This document shows positions 20,537 through 37,841 of a stretch of 37,841 bases of DNA, in pieces. How positions within the stretch are numbered: position 1 is the first letter of the stretch; each line of letters begins with the position of its first letter. A model generated the notes under the pieces. The model made no database searches. It saw only the letters and a program-made list of their open reading frames with translations, and was not told the origin of the DNA. The translations under genes were made by a program, and so were the position numbers. The stretch is from a virus (taxonomy: Duplodnaviria; Heunggongvirae; Uroviricota; Caudoviricetes): IMG/VR virus record IMGVR_UViG_2850808358_000012, positions 1-37,841 of that record; one strand, 5' to 3'.

Positions 20537-22019
20537 GGGTCAGCATGTCGATAAGTTCTGCATCATCCATCTGCGGATATAATGAAGCGGCTTTGTTCAT
20601 GGCGGCTTCCGGGCCATCTTTCAGCACAGAAAGAATGACGGGTTTCAGCAGGGGATCAACCGAACGCTGCCAGTCTTCCGGTGAAACGCCCATCCGGTCG
20701 ATATCATCCTCCTGCGGGATATCATCAGCGGATAATGCGGCTTCTTTCTGCGGACCGTTATCCATGACGACCGGTTGAGCAGTAAACACGGCTTCATCAC
20801 CGACCGGCTGTGGAATATGGAGTTTTTCCTGTATCCATGAGACCGGAATACGCATTCCCGCCGCCAGTTTCGGAATGGCGTCAGACAGTGCCGTAATATC
20901 ACCCGCTTCACTGGTATCAAATACAATGCCCGGCAGGCGGTTAATATCAATGGTGCTGCCACTGTTCAGTGCCAGCAGGGGATAAATCAGATCACGGTTA
21001 ATACTGCGGGCAAGCTGGCCCACATCCGCGTTACGGATTTCCCGGCGAACCTCATCATGCACTTCACCCAGCGACCGCGCGCCTTTATCGCCAGCCTCTG
21101 TGGTCAGGGTGCCGCCCAGAATAGCTTTTGAAATCGCTTTTTCTGCCCAGCCAATCATCGCCATAAAGGGGTCTGACTGACCATCTGCGGCGCTCTGAAA
21201 ATCCAGCGTCATCCCCATCGGAATAATGCCACCGGCACGTCGCCCGATATCCATCACGGCCTGCATCAGCGTGGCTTTCTCACGGTTCGTGGAGCCGGTC
21301 GGATATTTACCAACGCGCATGGGGAGTCCGTAAATTTCCAGAAACTCTGCAAAATCACGCACGGAATAGTTTTTAAAAATAAAAGGCCAGATAAGCGTGC
21401 GCACAAGGCCATTGGTGCCAACGTACCCGGTGCGGGATTTGGCCCGGTGCATAAACCAGCCGAACGGTTGCAGCTCCAGCCCGTGATAAGACGCATCACG
21501 CAGGCGTAATTCGTTCAGATTGTCTGGGTTCGCGCAGAACAGCGCCGGATCGCGATGATGCAGCGCCACCGGTACGCGCATTTTCCCAAGCCACCCCCAT
21601 TCAATCTCCTGCATGGAATAGCCCTTGAGAATGGCATCACCGGCATCAAACAGGGCATCTTCAAACCACGCCGCATCATGCAGATATTCATTCAGCATGT
21701 CGGCGTCTTTTTTCTCCTGTGCGCTGGCATCACGTGCCGGAGCGATGCGCCATTCCAGCGCCTGAATGGCAAGCCGGCGTTTGCTCAGTTCGGAAAAAAG
21801 GTGGGTGTCCTTTTCTTCCATATCAAAGGCCAGGTCAGCCTGTGCGGTCAGATCACCGCGTTCGGCATCACGCAGCATCTGCGCGGCCCGGTTCGGCGTC
21901 ACACCACTGGAAGGATGCTCCTGCGTACGCTTCATGACCATTGCCAGCTCATCGCTGCGGGTCTGCATTTCATCGTCAAAATCAAACGGCTGCCCGGAAA
22001 TATCCAGAATACGGCCCAT
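20481..22019 (-). CDS. H: Portal protein (Mu H-like)
   Basis: 512 aa, immediately downstream of the terminase large subunit. Confidence 0.75.
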   Translation of the reverse strand: MGRILDISGQPFDFDDEMQTRSDELAMVMKRTQEHPSSGVTPNRAAQMLRDAERGDLTAQADLAFDMEEKDTHLFSELSKRRLAIQALEWRIAPARDASAQEKKDADMLNEYLHDAAWFEDALFDAGDAILKGYSMQEIEWGWLGKMRVPVALHHRDPALFCANPDNLNELRLRDASYHGLELQPFGWFMHRAKSRTGYVGTNGLVRTLIWPFIFKNYSVRDFAEFLEIYGLPMRVGKYPTGSTNREKATLMQAVMDIGRRAGGIIPMGMTLDFQSAADGQSDPFMAMIGWAEKAISKAILGGTLTTEAGDKGARSLGEVHDEVRREIRNADVGQLARSINRDLIYPLLALNSGSTIDINRLPGIVFDTSEAGDITALSDAIPKLAAGMRIPVSWIQEKLHIPQPVGDEAVFTAQPVVMDNGPQKEAALSADDIPQEDDIDRMGVSPEDWQRSVDPLLKPVILSVLKDGPEAAMNKAASLYPQMDDAELIDMLTRAIFVADIWGRLDAAADH

Positions 22020-23673
22020 TACCAGCCCCCTCGTTCAAACTGGTGATAATCATCAAAATCATCGTTATCAACACCATCACCACGGTGGCGTGGTGGCAGC
22101 GCCTGTATGCTGTCCTCGTCGATAACAAAACCATTCATATAAGACGCCCTGACAGCCATACAGAGCGCCACGGCAAAGTCGCCATGTCGTCGGCCTTTAC
22201 CGCCTTCGTCTTTTGTGCGCCCCTTATCAATCTGCGGAATACCTTTGTCCACCTTGATGTGGAGCAGGTCATCAAGTGTGGTCTGGTGCCGGGCAATCGT
22301 GATGTTCTGCGCTTCAAACTCGCCTTTCAGTTTCGGCATCCACTCCTGATACCAGGATGCGGTCAGATTCACACAGTCGATCATCTCCGGGCCATAAATC
22401 AGACGGGCGGCTTCTGCCAGATAACCGCCGTTACCGGTGGCATCAAATGCAGCGCCGGTAAAACGGGGCAAACGGGACAGAATGAATAAAAGGATTTGTC
22501 GCTGCTGGTCATAGGTCACATTACGCAGCTCCACGCGGAAACATTCGCGTTTGCGTAAGTCAGGCGTGATGGCAAGCGGCACAAACACCGTCAGGTCGCC
22601 ACGGCGTGCAAAGTCTTCGCCCAGTACGTGTTTATTGAGCGGCGACAGCGCATCGAGCAACGGGAGCAGCTCCTGTTCACACCAGTCCTGAACGATGCCG
22701 TGGCGCATTTGTGGTGTCAGCGATTCAAAATCGTCCGGGGCTTCAAAACGCAGAACCGGGATATCCCGCGCGGGTGTCATGGCAGCTTCAATCAGCACGC
22801 GTGACAGATAAGCGCCCCGGATTTTTTAGGAATGCAGCCGTATTCCTCGTCGGCGCTCTCTTTATTCGGCGCATTCCGGTACAGGCCATCACGCCAGGCT
22901 TTTTCCGCTTCCGGCGACCACGGCTGATTCGTGACGTAACAGATACGCCGGTACAACCCGTCAGCGATGGCATCATCCAGTGTGATGCGGTGAACGCTGT
23001 AATCCTTGCGCCCCTCGCGCGCATCCTGAATGTACTGGTTAAACAGGTTATCGACGCCGTTATGTGTCGATATGATGCGCACGCTGGCACCCCACATGTT
23101 TAGTGCAAAGGCCGCTTTCAGCAGTTCGTCCAGGGCTTCATGGAATGCCGCTTCATCAATCACCACGTCCCCCTGCAAACCACGCAGGTTAGACGGGCGG
23201 CTTGACAGCGCCTGTATCTTAAATCCGCTGTTCGGAAAGCGGATCATGTAGGTGAGGATTTCTTCTTTTTTGTCGCTGTCCCAGAAGGTCTGCTCCCAGA
23301 CGTCAGCCTTTGCCAGCTGGTTAAAGGCGCGGGCAAACAGGGCACAGGCGGCGATGTATTCCAGCGCCATTTCCTGACGGGAACCCACATAAAAGACGTT
23401 GCGACCACCGCGACGCTTCGGCTTTGCTGCCGTCATGACATTGCGGCCCGCTTCAGCCCATGTCAGACCGGTACGACGGGATTTTTCAGCGATGCAAATC
23501 TGGCTTTCATCCTCAAACCAGCGGCGCTGATAGCCCAGAAAAACCGGTTCATTGCGGGGCTGTGCTTCCCCGATATCGGTCACGATATTCACGCCGAGCA
23601 GTTCGGCTTCCTTACGCAGGTTGATTTTGCGGGGCGCATGAAGGGCTTTAAGTTTGCTTTCTCTGGTGCTCAC
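22019..23673 (-). CDS. Terminase large subunit, frameshifted as sequenced
   Basis: Two ORFs (22792..23673 and 22019..22798) in frames differing by 1 nt. The downstream frame is open from 22825; one extra A in the A6 run (plus-strand T6 at 22822-22827) restores a ~552-aa ORF. Confidence 0.7.
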
Positions 23674-23728
23674 GGGTGAAAAATCCGGTATAAATTTTCA
23701 GGCATTAATCAGTAAAAAAGAGGTTTTT

Positions 23729-23923
23729 ATGAAAGAGAAACTGACCATTGATCAAAAAATCGAAATTGCCCGGATAGCCGTGCAAATGTTTGAATCCACC
23801 CGGGCAAAAGGCGTTTCACTTGAGATCTCCTGTTCAGGAAAAGCATCAGTGGAAGAAAACACATTTAATGCTTTCTACAAAATTGTTGAAAAAACCGTTA
23901 TCGGTGAACCTGAGAATAACTGA
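23729..23923 (+). CDS. Small hypothetical protein (64 aa) on the opposite strand
   Basis: Strong SD (AAGAGG 5 nt upstream of ATG); AT-rich; converges on and overlaps the 3' end of the 23898..24095 ORF. Confidence 0.5.
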   Translation: MKEKLTIDQKIEIARIAVQMFESTRAKGVSLEISCSGKASVEENTFNAFYKIVEKTVIGEPENN

Positions 23924-24095
23924 TCACCTGGCCCGCTGTAGCCGGGCCATCCACCAGTTGCATAACCAGATACAGGGCCTCGGCCATAATTCGTGGATGG
24001 ACTTCCGGATCCTCATCAATCTGTTTTTTCACAACGGGCCACAGTGCCATTGCCAGTTCTGTTGAGGTTTTGTATTTAGTTTTTTCATCCGCCAT
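23898..24095 (-). CDS. Small hypothetical protein (65 aa)
   Basis: GAGGAG 6 nt upstream of the second ATG (MADEKTKYK...); AT-rich segment between gp27-like gene and terminase. Confidence 0.45.
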   Translation of the reverse strand: MADEKTKYKTSTELAMALWPVVKKQIDEDPEVHPRIMAEALYLVMQLVDGPATAGQVISYSQVHR

Positions 24096-24105
24096 TTTCA
24101 TCTCC

Positions 24106-24276
24106 TCAGGACAAAGTCCTTAGTTGTTTTATGGTCGTATGCCATGAATTGCCTGAAGCCATAGCCTGAACAAGCACATCCCGAATCTGGTGTATCAACC
24201 GGACATCAGACAATGTTGCAATCCTGAAGGCTTTTTTATGGGCACTGATTAGCTGTGCTTTGTAATTATTTTTCAT
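24106..24276 (-). CDS. Small hypothetical protein (56 aa)
   Basis: Distal part of six-frame ORF 24106..24471; starts 10 nt after the stop of the 24287..24877 gene. Confidence 0.35.
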   Translation of the reverse strand: MKNNYKAQLISAHKKAFRIATLSDVRLIHQIRDVLVQAMASGNSWHTTIKQLRTLS

Positions 24277-24286
24277 AACGTAACGC

Positions 24287-24877
24287 CTACGCTTTCCCCA
24301 GCAGTACATCACGGATGCGCTGCTCCAGTTCTTCGCTGATGCCATCCTGCCCGCGCAGTTCTTCACTGACGGCGTTTGCCGCTTCTTCTGCGAACGCCTG
24401 GCGGATTTCTTTCTCGCGCCGGTGGCTGGACATTGCTGTGGATTCCAGACGCTGTGCCGCCAGCATGGCATTTTTCAGCAGGTCAATATCCACGTCAGAT
24501 TCCGGGTTTTCGATTTGCCGCATCATGGCCTTAAAAAGCTGGCTGCGGGCCATTTCCAGAATCAGCTTTGTGGTTTCGCCCATTGGCTTGTCGCCAAGCT
24601 CTGCGGTCAGTGCTGACGTCATTTCACGCATCTGTCGCAGGTTATGGCCTACCTGCTCGACGTTCGTCGCGTAACGGTTCAGACCGGAACGGGAGAGTTT
24701 CATCTCATCCGGCAGGCCAGCGTCTTCAATCAGTGCGTTAATTTCTTCAAGAATACGGGCCTGTGGGATCGCCTTATCACGCAGCATTTCATGCAGCGTT
24801 TTACGTACGTTTTCCGGCAGTAAATCCACTTTTGAAGCCCGTCCCCGTGTTTTCCTGTCCATCACGCCTCCTGTCAT
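24287..24877 (-). CDS. Mu gp27-like protein, possible terminase small subunit
   Basis: 196 aa, position upstream of terminase large subunit. Confidence 0.5.
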   Translation of the reverse strand: MTGGVMDRKTRGRASKVDLLPENVRKTLHEMLRDKAIPQARILEEINALIEDAGLPDEMKLSRSGLNRYATNVEQVGHNLRQMREMTSALTAELGDKPMGETTKLILEMARSQLFKAMMRQIENPESDVDIDLLKNAMLAAQRLESTAMSSHRREKEIRQAFAEEAANAVSEELRGQDGISEELEQRIRDVLLGKA

Positions 24878-27229: not shown

Positions 27230-27349
27230 TTAACAGACAAAAAGATACACCACGGCACTGATGGTTATCAGAACCACAAGGGCAATCACTTTTATCGCAT
27301 TAATCAGCGTGGACGGCCCGAAACATTCATCACTGAATTTTCTGTACAC
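27230..27349 (-). CDS. Candidate 39-aa hydrophobic peptide upstream of C
   Basis: GTG start with AAGGA 8 nt upstream; product ...INAIKVIALVVLITISAVVYLFVC has one predicted TM helix. Below the ORF-track length cut-off. Confidence 0.3.
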   Translation of the reverse strand: MYRKFSDECFGPSTLINAIKVIALVVLITISAVVYLFVC

Positions 27350-30386: not shown

Positions 30387-30992
30387 TTATTCCTCCGTCA
30401 GTGCCACAAATTCAGAATGTTTAATGCGCTGGCATTCGGCGGGAACCGGTCCCTTCACTTCGCCAGCCAGAAGGTACACCGCAAACAAAATGCCGAATCC
30501 GTCACGGCCGTGGTGCATTTCCCACACTGATTTGATGTCAAACAGGTCAACGTCGGTAGCCACGTTAAGTTCATTGCACAGCCAGACCGGAAAATCCGGG
30601 TATTTTTCGAGCTGATTTTCACAGTCCCGGATGCGCTTCCCGTATTCACGGCCTGCCGGTATTGTCATATCCGGCATTGCCGCCCATAACTGAATATCGC
30701 CAATGAAAAGTGTTTTTGATTCAGTTACCCATCCTTCCGGTGGTAAACGGTTAAACCAGACACGCGTAACCCTCTCAGGCCCTTTGTCACCAGACAAAGA
30801 CACACCGGTTGCATTCACTGATTGCTGTAATAACGAAATAATCTCACCACGCTTAACATAAACGTCTTTCAGCCAGCGAATCGTATAAGCGTTAGCGGCT
30901 GTGTCACTCAGTTTAAAATAAGCACATGCTGTCATTTTCATTCTCTCCGGTTCTGATTCAGGCGCGAGTAGTCCCCTGACGCATCGCGCCAA
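30387..30992 (-). CDS. Hypothetical early protein downstream of gam
   Basis: 201-aa ORF; real start possibly at internal MKMTACAYF.... Confidence 0.5.
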   Translation of the reverse strand: MARCVRGLLAPESEPERMKMTACAYFKLSDTAANAYTIRWLKDVYVKRGEIISLLQQSVNATGVSLSGDKGPERVTRVWFNRLPPEGWVTESKTLFIGDIQLWAAMPDMTIPAGREYGKRIRDCENQLEKYPDFPVWLCNELNVATDVDLFDIKSVWEMHHGRDGFGILFAVYLLAGEVKGPVPAECQRIKHSEFVALTEE

Positions 30993-34031: not shown

Positions 34032-36137
34032 TTAATTAAACAGCTTTTTACGTCTTTTCTGTTCCAGAATATCCAGTGAATGATTCAGATATTCATCACG
34101 CTCAGCGTTGTATGCATTATCAAGCGTCTCCTCAGGAGCCTGAGGCTGAACTGTCACCACATTACCCACAGGGCGATAAACATTCCCCAGCCAGGGTTCT
34201 GTCGTTTTTTGTTCAATAACCTGAATACCTTCATCTTCAGCATCACGAATTTTTCCCTCAGCGCGTTTGCGCATTCCTTTAATACGCTGCTGCTGTTTGT
34301 GATATTCCGCACTGACAGGAAAGGCTGCGCGTTTATTGCCGTTCCATATCGCCTCACAAATAAAACTGCCATCCTTACGGCGCACTGTAATTCGCTCTGC
34401 ATCATGAATGTCATAGCTGATAAGCACTTTGCGACCATGTTCATCACGCAGCTCCGGCGCGTAATAAATATTCCCAAGCCATTTGATTTCGCAGCGTCTT
34501 ACCGGTCGTTCCACCATTGGGCGGAACATGTCGCGCAGCTCAAGATCACTCAGCCACTCAATTTCGGTGTCTTCTTCTGCCAGGCGTTTTTTTCTGAACT
34601 CTGTCGGGCTGTAATGCCGTCCGTTCGGTTTCATCGGCAGCTCAGAATGCGGGCGGTTGTTGTACCATTCCACGCCTTCACGAATAGCCTCAATAAGCTC
34701 CGCCCACGATGGCAGCTCGCGCATTGCCGCTTTCTGGCGGTCGTTCAGAGGCTTGTCCTGTTGCAGGGCGTTAAACGCTGAACGCAGATCACGGTTAAGT
34801 ACACGCAACGATTCCCGGTCAGCACCCTTGCCAAAATAGGTGCGATACCTCCTGGCTATACGCATCGGCAGTGTCCGGTTCAGGCGTTCAATAATGCCGC
34901 GTCCCTGTGGATTACCGGCAATACCGGTAGGGTGTTTAATCCCCAGGCGTGGCAGAATACCCACGACCTCTTTGTCCAGCATGTCAGCCGTTTCACCGGA
35001 ACCGTTATCCGAGTAATACAGGAACGGTTTTCCGTGGTTGCGAATGCCGTGCTGTATCGCACCGGCAACGGCGAACACGTTTTCGGCAAGGTCAAGACTC
35101 CAGCCAACAACAAACCGTGTTCCACCATCGATCACAAACGTGACTTCCGGTGAGAATGGACGCCCGTGGATCGGATGCGCACATTTCAGCTTCATACCGT
35201 GACCGTCACCAATCCAGACATAATTCACCGGCATAGCTGTCCAGTCGCGGCGGGTGAATCCTTCAAGCTGACGGTATTCACTGCCGGTAACGCGCCCTTT
35301 TTGTCTCACCACTTCCGGCAGTTTTTTCATGGCATACCGGACAACATCATAGGAAGGCATCACCTCCAGCATGTACGGTTCGTCCGCATGGCGACGCTGC
35401 CATTCTGCGACAAAATCCTCGTAGGCTTCTGACATGGGTCTGCCGTTCACCTGCCGATACTGCGCCAGAAATTCAGGCAGCCAGCTGATTTCTTCCGGTT
35501 TTATTTCGTCGCGTTTTCCCGGTGCCAGTAACAGCAGCCGTTCGGCGGCGTTCTGCGACTGGTTGTATTTCAGAACCCACTGGTAAAGTGGATCGCGGCT
35601 GATAGTACGATTAGCGCCACGTTTTGCATTGGCGTTAACTGCGGCCTGTTGCAGGCGCTCCGGCAGCTCACCTTTACGGGCTTTTTCAACAAGAAAGTTA
35701 ATGGCTTTCAGTCGCCCGAGGTTACCGGCGCTTTCCAGCTTCAGCACTTCCACCACCAGCGCAGCTCTTGCTTCAGATACCCGGCGCTGGTTTTCGGTCA
35801 GCGCATTCAGGCGTTCTTCCATCAGTTGTGGAGAACCGCGATATGCTTCGATTGCCTGGACAGCGTCAGGATTGCGTGTTTTTCTGGTAACAGCTTTCAC
35901 TTCAGAAACATTGTTCTCTGTAGCCACCAGCTGTTCCACATAGCGTTCACGCAGTGCCTTTCGTGTTATTTCAGGCAGACAATCAATGTGGTACTCAATG
36001 GCTTTTGTGCCTTCCCGACGGCGACTAACGTCACCAAGATCACGAGAAAAACGCTGTAACGCCTGTCGGATGCCTTTTGTGGTGGCTGGCATTCCTGGTA
36101 CGCCGAGCAGGTCATTTACGGTAACGTACGACTGCAT
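34032..36137 (-). CDS. A: DDE transposase A (Mu A family)
   Basis: C-terminus ...ERDEYLNHSLDILEQKRRKK matches the Mu A C-terminal tail. N-terminal domain aligns with Mu A domain I (GxP...G..KAIEY...LP.E.K) but is divergent. Start set at ATG 36137 (AGGAAGG 8 nt upstream) rather than the six-frame start at 36206. Confidence 0.85.
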   Translation of the reverse strand: MQSYVTVNDLLGVPGMPATTKGIRQALQRFSRDLGDVSRRREGTKAIEYHIDCLPEITRKALRERYVEQLVATENNVSEVKAVTRKTRNPDAVQAIEAYRGSPQLMEERLNALTENQRRVSEARAALVVEVLKLESAGNLGRLKAINFLVEKARKGELPERLQQAAVNANAKRGANRTISRDPLYQWVLKYNQSQNAAERLLLLAPGKRDEIKPEEISWLPEFLAQYRQVNGRPMSEAYEDFVAEWQRRHADEPYMLEVMPSYDVVRYAMKKLPEVVRQKGRVTGSEYRQLEGFTRRDWTAMPVNYVWIGDGHGMKLKCAHPIHGRPFSPEVTFVIDGGTRFVVGWSLDLAENVFAVAGAIQHGIRNHGKPFLYYSDNGSGETADMLDKEVVGILPRLGIKHPTGIAGNPQGRGIIERLNRTLPMRIARRYRTYFGKGADRESLRVLNRDLRSAFNALQQDKPLNDRQKAAMRELPSWAELIEAIREGVEWYNNRPHSELPMKPNGRHYSPTEFRKKRLAEEDTEIEWLSDLELRDMFRPMVERPVRRCEIKWLGNIYYAPELRDEHGRKVLISYDIHDAERITVRRKDGSFICEAIWNGNKRAAFPVSAEYHKQQQRIKGMRKRAEGKIRDAEDEGIQVIEQKTTEPWLGNVYRPVGNVVTVQPQAPEETLDNAYNAERDEYLNHSLDILEQKRRKKLFN

Positions 36138-36138
36138 A

Positions 36139-36390
36139 TCACGACACCTTCCTGATAAATCCATCGTTACGATACCGGCTGGGCCAGATGATTTCTGGCG
36201 GTACACCTATAGCGTCAGAAATTACGCGTTCGTATTTTTTGTTTGGTGTGCGAACTACCGCTTTCAGTGAATCCTGAGCATAACCAGCATGGAGTGAAAG
36301 CTCCCGGAAGGAAGACCACCCGTTATCTTTGAGCGCCAGCTGAATCTTCAGCGAAGGCCAATCGCGGTCACTATCTTCTCTTTGTCTCAT
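36139..36390 (-). CDS. ner: Ner-like DNA-binding regulator
   Basis: 83 aa; ...DAIGVPPEIIWPSRY motif typical of the Ner/Nlp family; first gene of the early operon. Confidence 0.8.
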   Translation of the reverse strand: MRQREDSDRDWPSLKIQLALKDNGWSSFRELSLHAGYAQDSLKAVVRTPNKKYERVISDAIGVPPEIIWPSRYRNDGFIRKVS

Positions 36391-36554
36391 CTTTCCTTTA
36401 ACCTACAAAATTACCCGCGCGGATATCCGGTCGGATATCCGTATGGATAAAGATTAAGATGCCAAAGATTCCTTGTAAAGGCTTCTTTGGTGTTTTTGTG
36501 GTTTATTTTTTAATTTCATTATTTATCAATGAATTAGATAGAAAGGAACCAAGA
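36391..36554. promoter_or_regulatory. Divergent early-promoter/operator region between ner and repressor
   Basis: Two palindromic GGATATCCG copies (36421-36429 and 36433-36441), 12 bp apart, plus a GGATA half-site. Confidence 0.5.
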
Positions 36555-37118
36555 ATGAGAAAAGCACCCCAAGGTTCTTTTCCTGCCGATGGAAAAGAAC
36601 CGATTATCGAAAGAATCTTTAGGTTAGTAGAACGATACCCTTCAAGAAATGCGGCTGCTCGGGCATGGGGGATCAATGAAGGCACTTTAAAAAATTATTA
36701 CAACAGGCGGGATTACGCACCGATACCACGCCCGCATCAGTTAAAAAAGATAGCAGAAAGCGAAAATGTTACCTTGGAATGGCTCATGACGGGAGAGGGT
36801 GATGTTGAACTAAAAGATTCCAAAGAACCCAAAAAAGAGAATGCGGATAATGTTGATGCTCAAATTCTAATGTTCTTGTCATTTCTTAAACCACAAGAAA
36901 AACAACAAGTAGCTGATGTTCTTGGGAGAAAAGGAGCGGAGCAATTACTCATTCTTCTGGATGAGCACATCCAAGAGTTGCACGCTCTAGTTGGAGTTCG
37001 TAGAGCCATAGCGTTAAGCCTTGGTAATTTGCCAGACGAAAAGGTTAGAGAGATTTACGCGTTGTCCGAAGCTAAGGGCGATCACTTAAATCTACCTCAG
37101 AAAGCAGCCAGCGCATAA
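36555..37118 (+). CDS. Repressor, CI-type helix-turn-helix (not Mu c-type)
   Basis: Start at the ATG with AAGGAA 6 nt upstream (six-frame ORF begins at 36459). HTH region ...AAARAWGINEGTLKNYYN...TLEWLMTGEG; transcribed divergently from ner toward the phage end. Confidence 0.65.
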   Translation: MRKAPQGSFPADGKEPIIERIFRLVERYPSRNAAARAWGINEGTLKNYYNRRDYAPIPRPHQLKKIAESENVTLEWLMTGEGDVELKDSKEPKKENADNVDAQILMFLSFLKPQEKQQVADVLGRKGAEQLLILLDEHIQELHALVGVRRAIALSLGNLPDEKVREIYALSEAKGDHLNLPQKAASA

Positions 37119-37379: not shown

Positions 37380-37841
37380 TTACCTAGTCATATCCTTTTG
37401 GATGTCATTCTCCGGTGGCAACGGGGTGAAGCTCTTTATCACCTCCAGCAGCATCGTCTTTTGACTGTTCTTCAGGGATAAGGAGGTGCTGAAAGTGAAG
37501 GTCAGCAGCGTATCTCCACGCCGCTGGAATACGGCTATCTGGCTAATCCGCCCCTGATTCCCCTCATCTTCCGGACCGTTCCAGGAATAATCCAGCAGCC
37601 AGGCCGGGGCCTCTGCCAGAGTGATTTCCCGGCAGGCATGTTCGGTGTACCCATCAAGTTTGCCCTGGTACAGCGCCAGCGTTTCCTGGTACAGCTCTGG
37701 TGTCAGGGTTCCCTGTGGAACGGCTTCGCGGGTAATGACCAGGTTGATGCCACTGTTATCTGTGGACACCAGGACCTGCATTGACTGATCCTGCCATTGA
37801 GACGGCAGTTGAATGTGGCCTTCATTAAAAGTGAACTGCAT
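37380..37841 (-). CDS. Host DUF1795/DcrB-family protein, EagR-like T6SS effector chaperone
   Basis: 153 aa; N-terminal pattern F.EG.I.LP..WQDQS...SG.NLVITRE resembles DUF1795 proteins as I recall them; stop codon overlaps the 5-bp target duplication. Confidence 0.5.
   Translation of the reverse strand: MQFTFNEGHIQLPSQWQDQSMQVLVSTDNSGINLVITREAVPQGTLTPELYQETLALYQGKLDGYTEHACREITLAEAPAWLLDYSWNGPEDEGNQGRISQIAVFQRRGDTLLTFTFSTSLSLKNSQKTMLLEVIKSFTPLPPENDIQKDMTR

Follow-up and report, generated by a model that had tools for sequence, protein, structure and literature searches.

Some Mu-like transposable prophages carry a short accessory cassette between their two terminase genes, with a pair of small convergent genes at its core. 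The example described here comes from a 37,841-nucleotide stretch of viral DNA (IMG/VR record IMGVR_UViG_2850808358_000012, positions 1 to 37,841; the whole stretch is called the window below), a Mu-like prophage that is nearly complete and has its late genes on the minus strand. Three small open reading frames (ORFs), orfA, orfB, and orfC, lie between gp27, which encodes a small-terminase-like protein, and the gene for the large terminase subunit (TerL). By sequence comparison, they form an optional, conserved three-gene cassette of Mu-like phages, not random hotspot cargo, and the convergent orfC/orfB pair is its core. By analogy with Tab and anti-Tab of the Pseudomonas phage JBD26, this pair may consist of a prophage-expressed inhibitor of a late step and its late-operon antidote, a tentative reading to which we give a probability of roughly 0.45.

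A first-pass annotation had singled out about 600 bp of lower-GC sequence between a gp27-like gene and TerL, with three small ORFs (56 amino acids, 65 amino acids, and 64 amino acids on the opposite strand behind a strong Shine-Dalgarno [SD] sequence) and a convergent pair overlapping at its 3′ ends. Each of these features is present. The GC content of positions 23674-24286 is 42.6% versus 52.3% for the window, at the 2.9th percentile of 613-bp windows, and orfB and orfC converge tail to tail with a 26-bp overlap (23898-23923). The same annotation had suggested a comparison with Mu, and this shows an insertion rather than conserved core genes: in Mu, D108, and SfMu the segment is absent and the gp27 stop lies 7 nt from the gp28 start. 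Neither terminal inverted repeats nor target duplications were found at the cassette ends; the only repeat is a 15-nt direct repeat around the orfC module.

The insert is found in a subset of relatives. Across 24 surveyed species genomes that encode a gp27 homolog, the gap between gp27 and TerL is usually about 0, and the insert occurs in some only. Among 5,426 complete Escherichia coli genomes, Mu-type gp27 is present in 44 and some part of the cassette in 13, with all three genes in 1, the orfA region only in 9, and an orfB-orfC pair of the type seen in strain SE11 in 3. The order gp27, orfA-like, orfB-like, convergent orfC-like, TerL recurs in Mu-like prophages of Mixta intestinalis and Apirhabdus apintestini and in several metagenomes. 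Gut metagenomes and IMG/VR contigs, too, have either all three genes or the orfB-orfC pair in this slot. A search of 5.8 billion proteins returned just 3-7 close relatives for each of the three proteins, and their genomic contexts have the identical arrangement throughout. The pair also extends beyond phages with a gp27-type small terminase, as scans of IMG/VR and metagenomes with an orfC profile place it directly upstream of TerL in phages with a DUF1804-type small terminase (D3112/B3-like). One of these (locus L062) additionally has an orfA-like gene. The SE11-type loci and locus L063 have orfB and orfC without orfA, and in the SE11 type orfB directly follows gp27. This recurrence of the same three families in diverged Mu-like phages argues for a cassette rather than for chance cargo. 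In DUF1804-type loci, an extra ORF of 140-157 amino acids with no Pfam match lies between the small terminase gene and orfB, the place that orfA takes in gp27-type phages.

Non-functional filler, in the form of chance ORFs or decaying remnants, is effectively refuted. It could draw on five apparent frameshifts elsewhere in the window and on the lack of a RefSeq annotation for orfA in several genomes. These frameshifts are all 1-nt deletions in G/C homopolymers, typical of sequencing error, and each of the three ORFs has diverged homologs at the same position (32-70% identical, syntenic) with a ratio of nonsynonymous to synonymous substitution rates (dN/dS) below 1, which argues that they are more than chance ORFs. 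Pairwise dN/dS is 0.26-0.66 for orfA and 0.15-0.45 for orfB; for orfC, dS is saturated and pairwise dN is 0.28-0.76. Start codons and SD sequences are conserved as well, that of orfC being kept as AAGAGG, GAGAGG, or AAGGGG in all 12 distinct loci. Codons 1-10 of orfC (MKEKLTIDQK) encode an invariant protein sequence with many differences, all synonymous, which indicates that the constraint on orfC acts on the protein. Judged from their homologs, orfA, orfB, and orfC are thus protein-coding genes under purifying selection.

Homology searches of the three products, also proposed in the first-pass annotation, identified a relative for orfA (see below) and led only to PHROG families of “unknown function” for orfB and orfC. 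No match to any of the three proteins was obtained in Pfam, NCBIfam, or PADLOC, and a search of Rfam was likewise negative. All three are hydrophilic (grand average of hydropathy [GRAVY] of -0.23 to -0.30). Literature searches on the protein accession and on Mu-like accessory genes at this junction gave nothing specific except the paper on Tab.

The convergent orfC/orfB pair

A full HMMER scan of 1.84 billion representatives defines the orfC family as 21 representative clusters. All but two are stand-alone proteins of 61-86 amino acids, and the two exceptions are long multi-stretch matches; no fusions hinting at function appeared in the profile search of the representative library. All 21 members match phrog_25148. 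Conserved in the family is the N-terminal helix (KLTIDQKxxIAxxA); it is followed by a loop of strongly variable sequence and length and by a second helix with an acidic EPE tail. An AlphaFold2 (AF2) model of orfC likewise consists of two helices and a 14-residue loop, with a predicted local distance difference test score (pLDDT) of 66-68 for the modelled proteins. In profile searches against sequences from the PDB, the only matches were designed helical repeats and noise. A Rop-like or ribbon-helix-helix protein, considered on the sequence pattern of orfC, was rejected for lack of profile or fold support.

The orfB protein matches phrog_21398 (E 5.9e-39), and its alignment contains the conserved motif EALYLxMQxVxGPxxAGQ; the pLDDT of its AF2 model is 68. 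Counted from the ATG at 24101, it would have 67 residues; the start giving 65 was chosen because the GAGGAG sequence is properly spaced only for the second ATG and because the homologs all begin with MA. Neither orfB nor orfC has a paralog among the ORFs of the window, as judged by hhalign.

The two genes lie on opposite strands. Neither orfA nor orfB, both on the late strand, shows its own promoter or terminator signal, and orfB is inferred to be co-transcribed with the terminase genes. The overlap of the orfB SD sequence with the orfA stop codon suggests translational coupling of the two genes. In most lineages (Mixta, L010, L040, RM8082) the orfA stop overlaps the orfB ATG; in the window a TGA comes seven codons earlier, and orfA ends inside the orfB SD sequence. 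The orfC gene is instead head to head with TerL, with 55 bp between their start codons. In 12 of 12 loci, the sequence 31-40 nt before the orfC ATG resembles a promoter, often with an extended -10 (TGnTAAGGT), and may give orfC a promoter of its own.

Just past the orfC stop, within orfB, lies a GC-rich stem-loop. It occurs in every one of the 12 distinct loci with 7-9 bp and a predicted -11 to -18 kcal/mol, and it begins 4-20 nt past the orfC stop. In nine of these it is the strongest simple hairpin of a region of about 715-770 nt, and in the other three the second strongest. Its sequence differs among loci, and in L048, L049, and L051 the 3′ arm stands in another codon register and encodes other residues, which argues for selection at the nucleic-acid level. 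Loop lengths also vary between loci, and alignment by MAFFT shifts the 5′ arm. In a locus that has lost orfC (Tongde), the stem-loop has decayed. It is probably a 3′-end or stability element of the orfC mRNA; as it lacks a U-tract, such an element would spare the late transcript from termination. A terminator scan of the region found two terminator-like sites, neither above shuffle expectation.

A second possible pairing involves the orfC SD region. In L010, L040, and L048-L052, all outside the E. coli clade, an arm of 9-10 nt (for example GTCCTCTTT or AAGCCTCTTT) lies between the putative orfC -35 and -10 and is complementary to the SD region (AAAGAGGAC or AAAGAGGCTT). In L049, a change in one arm is matched in the other (CCCCCT with AGGGG). 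This inverted repeat would be complete only in RNA of the late strand, and the upstream arm is lost in the E. coli clade.

The way in which the two genes co-occur also bears on their function. Among about 14 sequence types, none has orfC without a convergent orfB. The reverse is seen, as the Tongde and L013 loci lack exactly 23695-23891, which corresponds to the orfC module; in Tongde, orfB is present without orfC, and loci that have lost orfC show an internal deletion of orfB. Read across these loci, the pattern is that orfB outlives orfC and then decays. This asymmetry, in which orfC needs orfB and orfB can survive without orfC only to degenerate, is what a Tab-like system predicts.

The pair also appears to recombine. 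Relative to locus L005 (E. coli SE11), window positions 23660-23769, comprising the TerL start, the putative orfC promoter and SD sequence, and the first ~14 orfC codons, are about 90-95% identical; the remainder of orfC together with orfB has only 32-48% protein identity. The drop in identity inside orfC marks a recombination breakpoint, and the variable parts of orfB and orfC seem to have been swapped together as one unit.

Tab and anti-Tab were described in the Pseudomonas Mu-like phage JBD26 (Patel et al. 2024, Nat Commun, PMC10884400). According to the available passages of that paper, the prophage expresses Tab, which acts through the tape measure protein of invading phages to prevent assembly of their tails; anti-Tab is encoded on the late strand right after the small terminase subunit (TerS) gene and binds Tab. 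In the same passages, tab without atab was unobtainable, being lethal to the phage, deletion of both was harmless, Tab is not toxic to the cell, and Tab homologs are reported only in close relatives of JBD26 (PMC10884400). If the orfC/orfB pair works in the same way, the resident prophage would express orfC, and the product would stop related superinfecting phages at a late step, probably in virion assembly or packaging. Upon prophage induction, orfB protein made from the late operon would bind and neutralize the orfC protein, and convergent late transcription would silence orfC. This reading is favored because the layout, the dispensability, and above all the co-occurrence asymmetry fit it.

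Several results weigh against a Tab-like pair. By hhalign, neither family shows detectable homology to its supposed counterpart, with a probability of 0.2% for orfC and Tab (YP_010299225) and of 0.1% for orfB and anti-Tab (YP_010299224), and fold searches with the AF2 models, which are of modest confidence, yielded no informative match. The putative orfC promoter of the window combines a good -10 with a poor -35, and a simple sigma-70 consensus scan called no promoter in the region. The stem-loop is followed by no U-tract on either strand, and the single-sequence folding z-score of the window copy is -1.3, which is not significant. Finally, the recurrence of the same families in this slot could also fit a packaging role internal to the phage. 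Because the homology test failed, orfB and orfC are not assigned to the Tab and anti-Tab families; tblastn of orfB and orfC variants against phage genomes also gave no JBD26-like match.

A toxin-antitoxin system was one of the first-pass suggestions. Such a system or an addiction module is highly improbable, whether of type I (by way of the 3′ antisense overlap) or of type II (by way of the protein pair). The convergent 3′ overlap and the obligate pairing of orfC with orfB would suit it. For type II, however, the genes would be expected in an operon, and here they are convergent and not co-transcribed, with no toxin-antitoxin match in Pfam, NCBIfam, or PADLOC. Type I would call for a hydrophobic or transmembrane peptide, and none is encoded (GRAVY about -0.3); moreover, both overlapping genes are protein-coding and under selection, and Rfam gave no match. 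As the two genes lie on opposite strands and orfB has no promoter of its own, the “antitoxin” would be absent in the lysogen, where orfC expression is expected. Tab, the closest architectural analog, is described in the passages cited as harmless to the cell (PMC10884400). A defence/counter-defence pair is a more specific and better-supported reading than the first-pass one.

If correct, the Tab-like reading would extend to enterobacterial Mu-like prophages, with proteins of unrelated sequence, a type of defence that the available passages place in one Pseudomonas phage group. It would mark the terminase junction as a general slot for defence/antidote pairs in transposable phages and would define a new inhibitor family, for which classical Mu, lacking the cassette, is a ready-made sensitive test phage in E. 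coli.

orfA and a possible link to the packaging vertex

Two weak matches, one to phrog_220 (“minor head protein and DNA pilot”, E 3.8e-4) and one by tblastn to the MuF N-terminus of Helicobacter Mu-like prophages, led to a direct comparison of orfA with MuF. In hhalign, residues ~44-96 of the MuF (gp30) encoded in the window match the orfA family with a probability of 95.4% (E 1.8e-8), and MuF is the sole match of the family among 168 window ORFs, the next best having an E of 0.011. Compared as families, orfA and MuF align at a probability of 97.4% (E 1.1e-11) and have in common the motif W..L..AH..AF.VA ... R....A..EG.T.E.F. As PF04233 spans MuF residues 71-200, orfA is the counterpart of the first helices of the conserved MuF core; against Pfam it scores below threshold, and it does not contain the complete MuF domain of ~110 residues. 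A MuF relative of solved structure was sought by sequence and not found. These alignments make orfA a free-standing paralog of the MuF N-terminal segment.

MuF-family proteins such as SPP1 gp7 and 80alpha gp44 pass into the capsid by way of the portal and leave it with the DNA upon ejection (PMC6316719, PMC12889711, PMC5576092, PMC5512222). Given its derivation from the MuF N-terminus, orfA would be an optional, late-expressed third component whose most likely role is at the interface of MuF and portal, or as a decoy for that interface. On the Tab-like reading, orfA would be a possible case of an accessory protein that arose from part of a virion protein, MuF.

This origin also bears on an unlikely alternative, in which the cassette is a packaging or head-vertex module internal to the phage. 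Here the late products of orfA and orfB would have the portal, MuF, or terminase as their target, and orfC or its antisense transcript, which is fully complementary to a ~225-nt untranslated TerL leader on the late mRNA, would tune terminase expression. Such a module is consistent with a slot that is always directly 5′ of TerL in two TerS backgrounds, with recurrent families in place of diverse cargo, with the relation of orfA to proteins loaded through the portal (PMC6316719, PMC12889711), with the lack of an SD sequence for TerL in the E. coli clade, and with the inverted repeat at the orfC SD region of the other loci, both arms of which would be on late-strand RNA only. However, Mu, D108, and most relatives package normally without the cassette; selection on the orfC protein, evident in its invariant N-terminus, implies more than an antisense RNA; and the decay of orfB after the loss of orfC is left unexplained. 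Should the pair be a packaging regulator all the same, it would add a new optional layer of terminase control in Mu-like phages.

A combination of defence and vertex function is quite improbable. In this version, a two-layer system of defence and counter-defence would act at the DNA-packaging vertex and not at the tail. The orfC protein would bind the N-terminal helices of MuF, or their docking site on the portal, in superinfecting Mu-like phages; orfB would be the dedicated late antidote; and orfA, a mimic of the MuF N-terminus that evolved from part of the target, would soak up such inhibitors as a decoy. With such a decoy, it would be understandable that some E. coli prophages retain orfA and nothing else of the cassette. 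The system would also represent a second, sequence-unrelated family of assembly-blocking prophage defence, coupled to an antidote based on target mimicry.

Similarly improbable is an anti-defence cassette, also among the first-pass suggestions, in which late orfA and orfB proteins, possibly carried in the virion, would inhibit host immunity like the products of the anti-CRISPR (Acr) loci in the head operon of Pseudomonas Mu-like phages. The proteins are indeed small, fast-evolving, and accessory, with orfB and orfC acidic; their late-operon position suits packaged proteins; and the segment of MuF to which orfA is similar is one that in many phages is fused to injected effectors (PMC5512222). 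Family, profile, and fold searches nevertheless revealed no similarity to a known anti-defence protein or to a helix-turn-helix (HTH) protein of the anti-CRISPR-associated (Aca) type. The recurrence of the same families also differs from the diverse cargo typical of anti-defence hotspots, and this reading leaves unexplained why orfC is oppositely oriented and strictly dependent on orfB.

Prophage context and features of the locus

Positions ~1070-34125 of the window align to phage Mu at 89-97% nucleotide identity, and the host gene dcrB occupies 37380-37841. The gene order at the locus is lysozyme, spanins, gp24-gp26, gp27, the three-ORF segment, TerL, portal, and MuF. Coordinates of the cassette and its flanks are collected in Table 1.

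Table 1. Features of the cassette, its flanking genes, and related loci (window coordinates unless a locus is named)
Feature	Position	Strand	Remarks
Whole accessory segment relative to Mu	23673-24290		618 bp
orfA, 56 amino acids, basic (isoelectric point 11.1)	24106-24276	-	Late-operon strand, directly after gp27
orfB, 65 amino acids, acidic, three predicted helices	23898-24095	-	phrog_21398; late-operon strand; candidate antidote (anti-Tab-like position)
SD sequence of orfB (GAGGAG)	24102-24107	-	Overlaps orfA stop codon; read from sequence
orfC, 64 amino acids, acidic helix-loop-helix	23729-23923	+	phrog_25148; opposite the late operon; candidate prophage-expressed inhibitor (Tab-like position)
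SD sequence of orfC (AAGAGG)	23718-23723	+	5 nt before ATG
-10-like element TATAAAT of putative orfC promoter	23689-23695	+	-35 would fall in first TerL codons
GC-rich stem-loop TGGCCCG-N7-CGGGCCA	23929-23949		Starts 6 nt after orfC stop; in orfB codons for GP..AGQ
15-nt direct repeat flanking orfC module, left copy	23677-23691	+	Repeat search
15-nt direct repeat, right copy	23887-23901	+	87% identical
gp27 (Mu D, small-terminase-like, DUF3486), flank	24287-24877	-	PF11985, E 1.4e-52
TerL (Mu gp28/E), flank	22019-23673	-	GTG start, no SD sequence; apparently split by 1-nt homopolymer deletion at 22814
Extra ORF of DUF1804-type loci	L048 3926-4399; L050 3966-4388; L051 3929-4390

Compared with Mu, five isolated 1-nt deletions occur at 22814, 19901, 18268, 16096, and 10725, each within a run of G or C, and they split TerL, MuF (F), the protease/scaffold gene I, gp35, and the tape measure gene. 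That all five are of this one kind points to sequencing or assembly error and not to a decayed prophage.

The prophage differs from Mu at other places as well. About 550 bp at 30398-30952, between gam and Mu gene 11, are an accessory insert of the early region and hold most of an ORF (30387-30992, minus strand) of up to 201 amino acids with no Pfam match. Mu positions 9463-9831, essentially gene 19 (a protein with four transmembrane domains), are missing at window ~27346-27348. At the left end, 34125-37118, which comprises the start of the transposase gene, ner, and the repressor, gives no blastn alignment to Mu. The 219-residue ORF in this region (36459-37118, plus strand) has a weak match to the HTH of CI repressors and to nothing else, and together these two results suggest an immunity region different from that of Mu.

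Comparison with known systems

In Pseudomonas Mu-like phages, acr-aca anti-CRISPR loci consist of small accessory genes within the late head operon, at the junction of the G and protease genes. Such a locus has one or more small acr genes and, after them, an aca gene for an HTH repressor. The cassette resembles them as a set of small accessory genes inside a late morphogenesis operon of Mu-like phages. It differs in its position, at the junction of TerS and TerL, and in its recurrent families as opposed to diverse cargo. Searches of Pfam and NCBIfam found no HTH or Aca-family gene in the cassette, and the only match of a PDB fold to an Acr (E 8.3) is noise.

Phage morons, such as lambda bor and lom or ORFs 3-5 in the packaging module of SPP1 (PMC6316719), are extra genes of deviant base composition between conserved late genes that are absent from close relatives, and in all these respects the cassette is similar. 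The moron layout proposed in the first-pass annotation holds in part: the segment is an accessory insert of low GC content, and orfC lies on the opposite strand with a promoter-like element, an SD sequence, and a 3′ stem-loop. It does not hold for orfA and orfB, both of which lack their own promoter and terminator and rely on the late transcript for expression. The orfC hairpin, moreover, has no U-tract, and the cassette is a conserved multi-gene unit and not a single autonomous gene.

Likeness to the MuF proteins (PF04233, with SPP1 gp7 and 80alpha gp44) is confined to orfA, which is homologous to the conserved N-terminal helices of the MuF domain. At ~56 residues, it lacks both the rest of that domain, including the region of the NCRC motif, and the MuF C-terminal domain. 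It is also encoded upstream of TerL, whereas MuF follows the portal gene.

The system closest in architecture is tab/atab. At the JBD26 locus (L067), tab lies at 3206-3457 on the minus strand, overlaps atab tail to tail by 47 bp, and is head to head with TerL at a distance of 30 bp. The locus has a GC content of 56.6% versus 64.7%, and both proteins are acidic. A stem-loop (GCTCACCACC-N6-GTGGTGGGC, -14 kcal/mol) lies inside atab, 19 nt past the tab stop; the available passages of the Tab paper contain no mention of it (PMC10884400).

Some differences from JBD26 concern the proteins and their phages. The orfC and orfB products have 64 and 65 residues versus 83 and 83 for Tab and anti-Tab, the hosts are enterobacterial, the small terminase is mostly of the gp27/DUF3486 type and not of the DUF1804 type, and a third gene, orfA, is added. 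The JBD26 inhibitor has its own promoter, and orfC has a putative one, marked by an element conserved in position; an assembly block and binding are reported for the JBD26 pair in the passages cited, and a late block and binding are predicted for orfC and orfB. The similarities lie in the arrangement. Both pairs occupy the same slot between the terminase genes, a slot that is without a cassette in Mu. In both, an inhibitor gene, or its candidate, opposes the late operon head to head with TerL, the partner gene lies on the late strand, and the two overlap tail to tail (47 bp in JBD26, 26 bp for orfB/orfC). Both have lower GC content, small acidic proteins, and a stem-loop just past the inhibitor stop, that of tab paralleling the one at the orfC/orfB junction. 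In each system the inhibitor gene, or its candidate, is never found without its partner, and the two are dispensable together.

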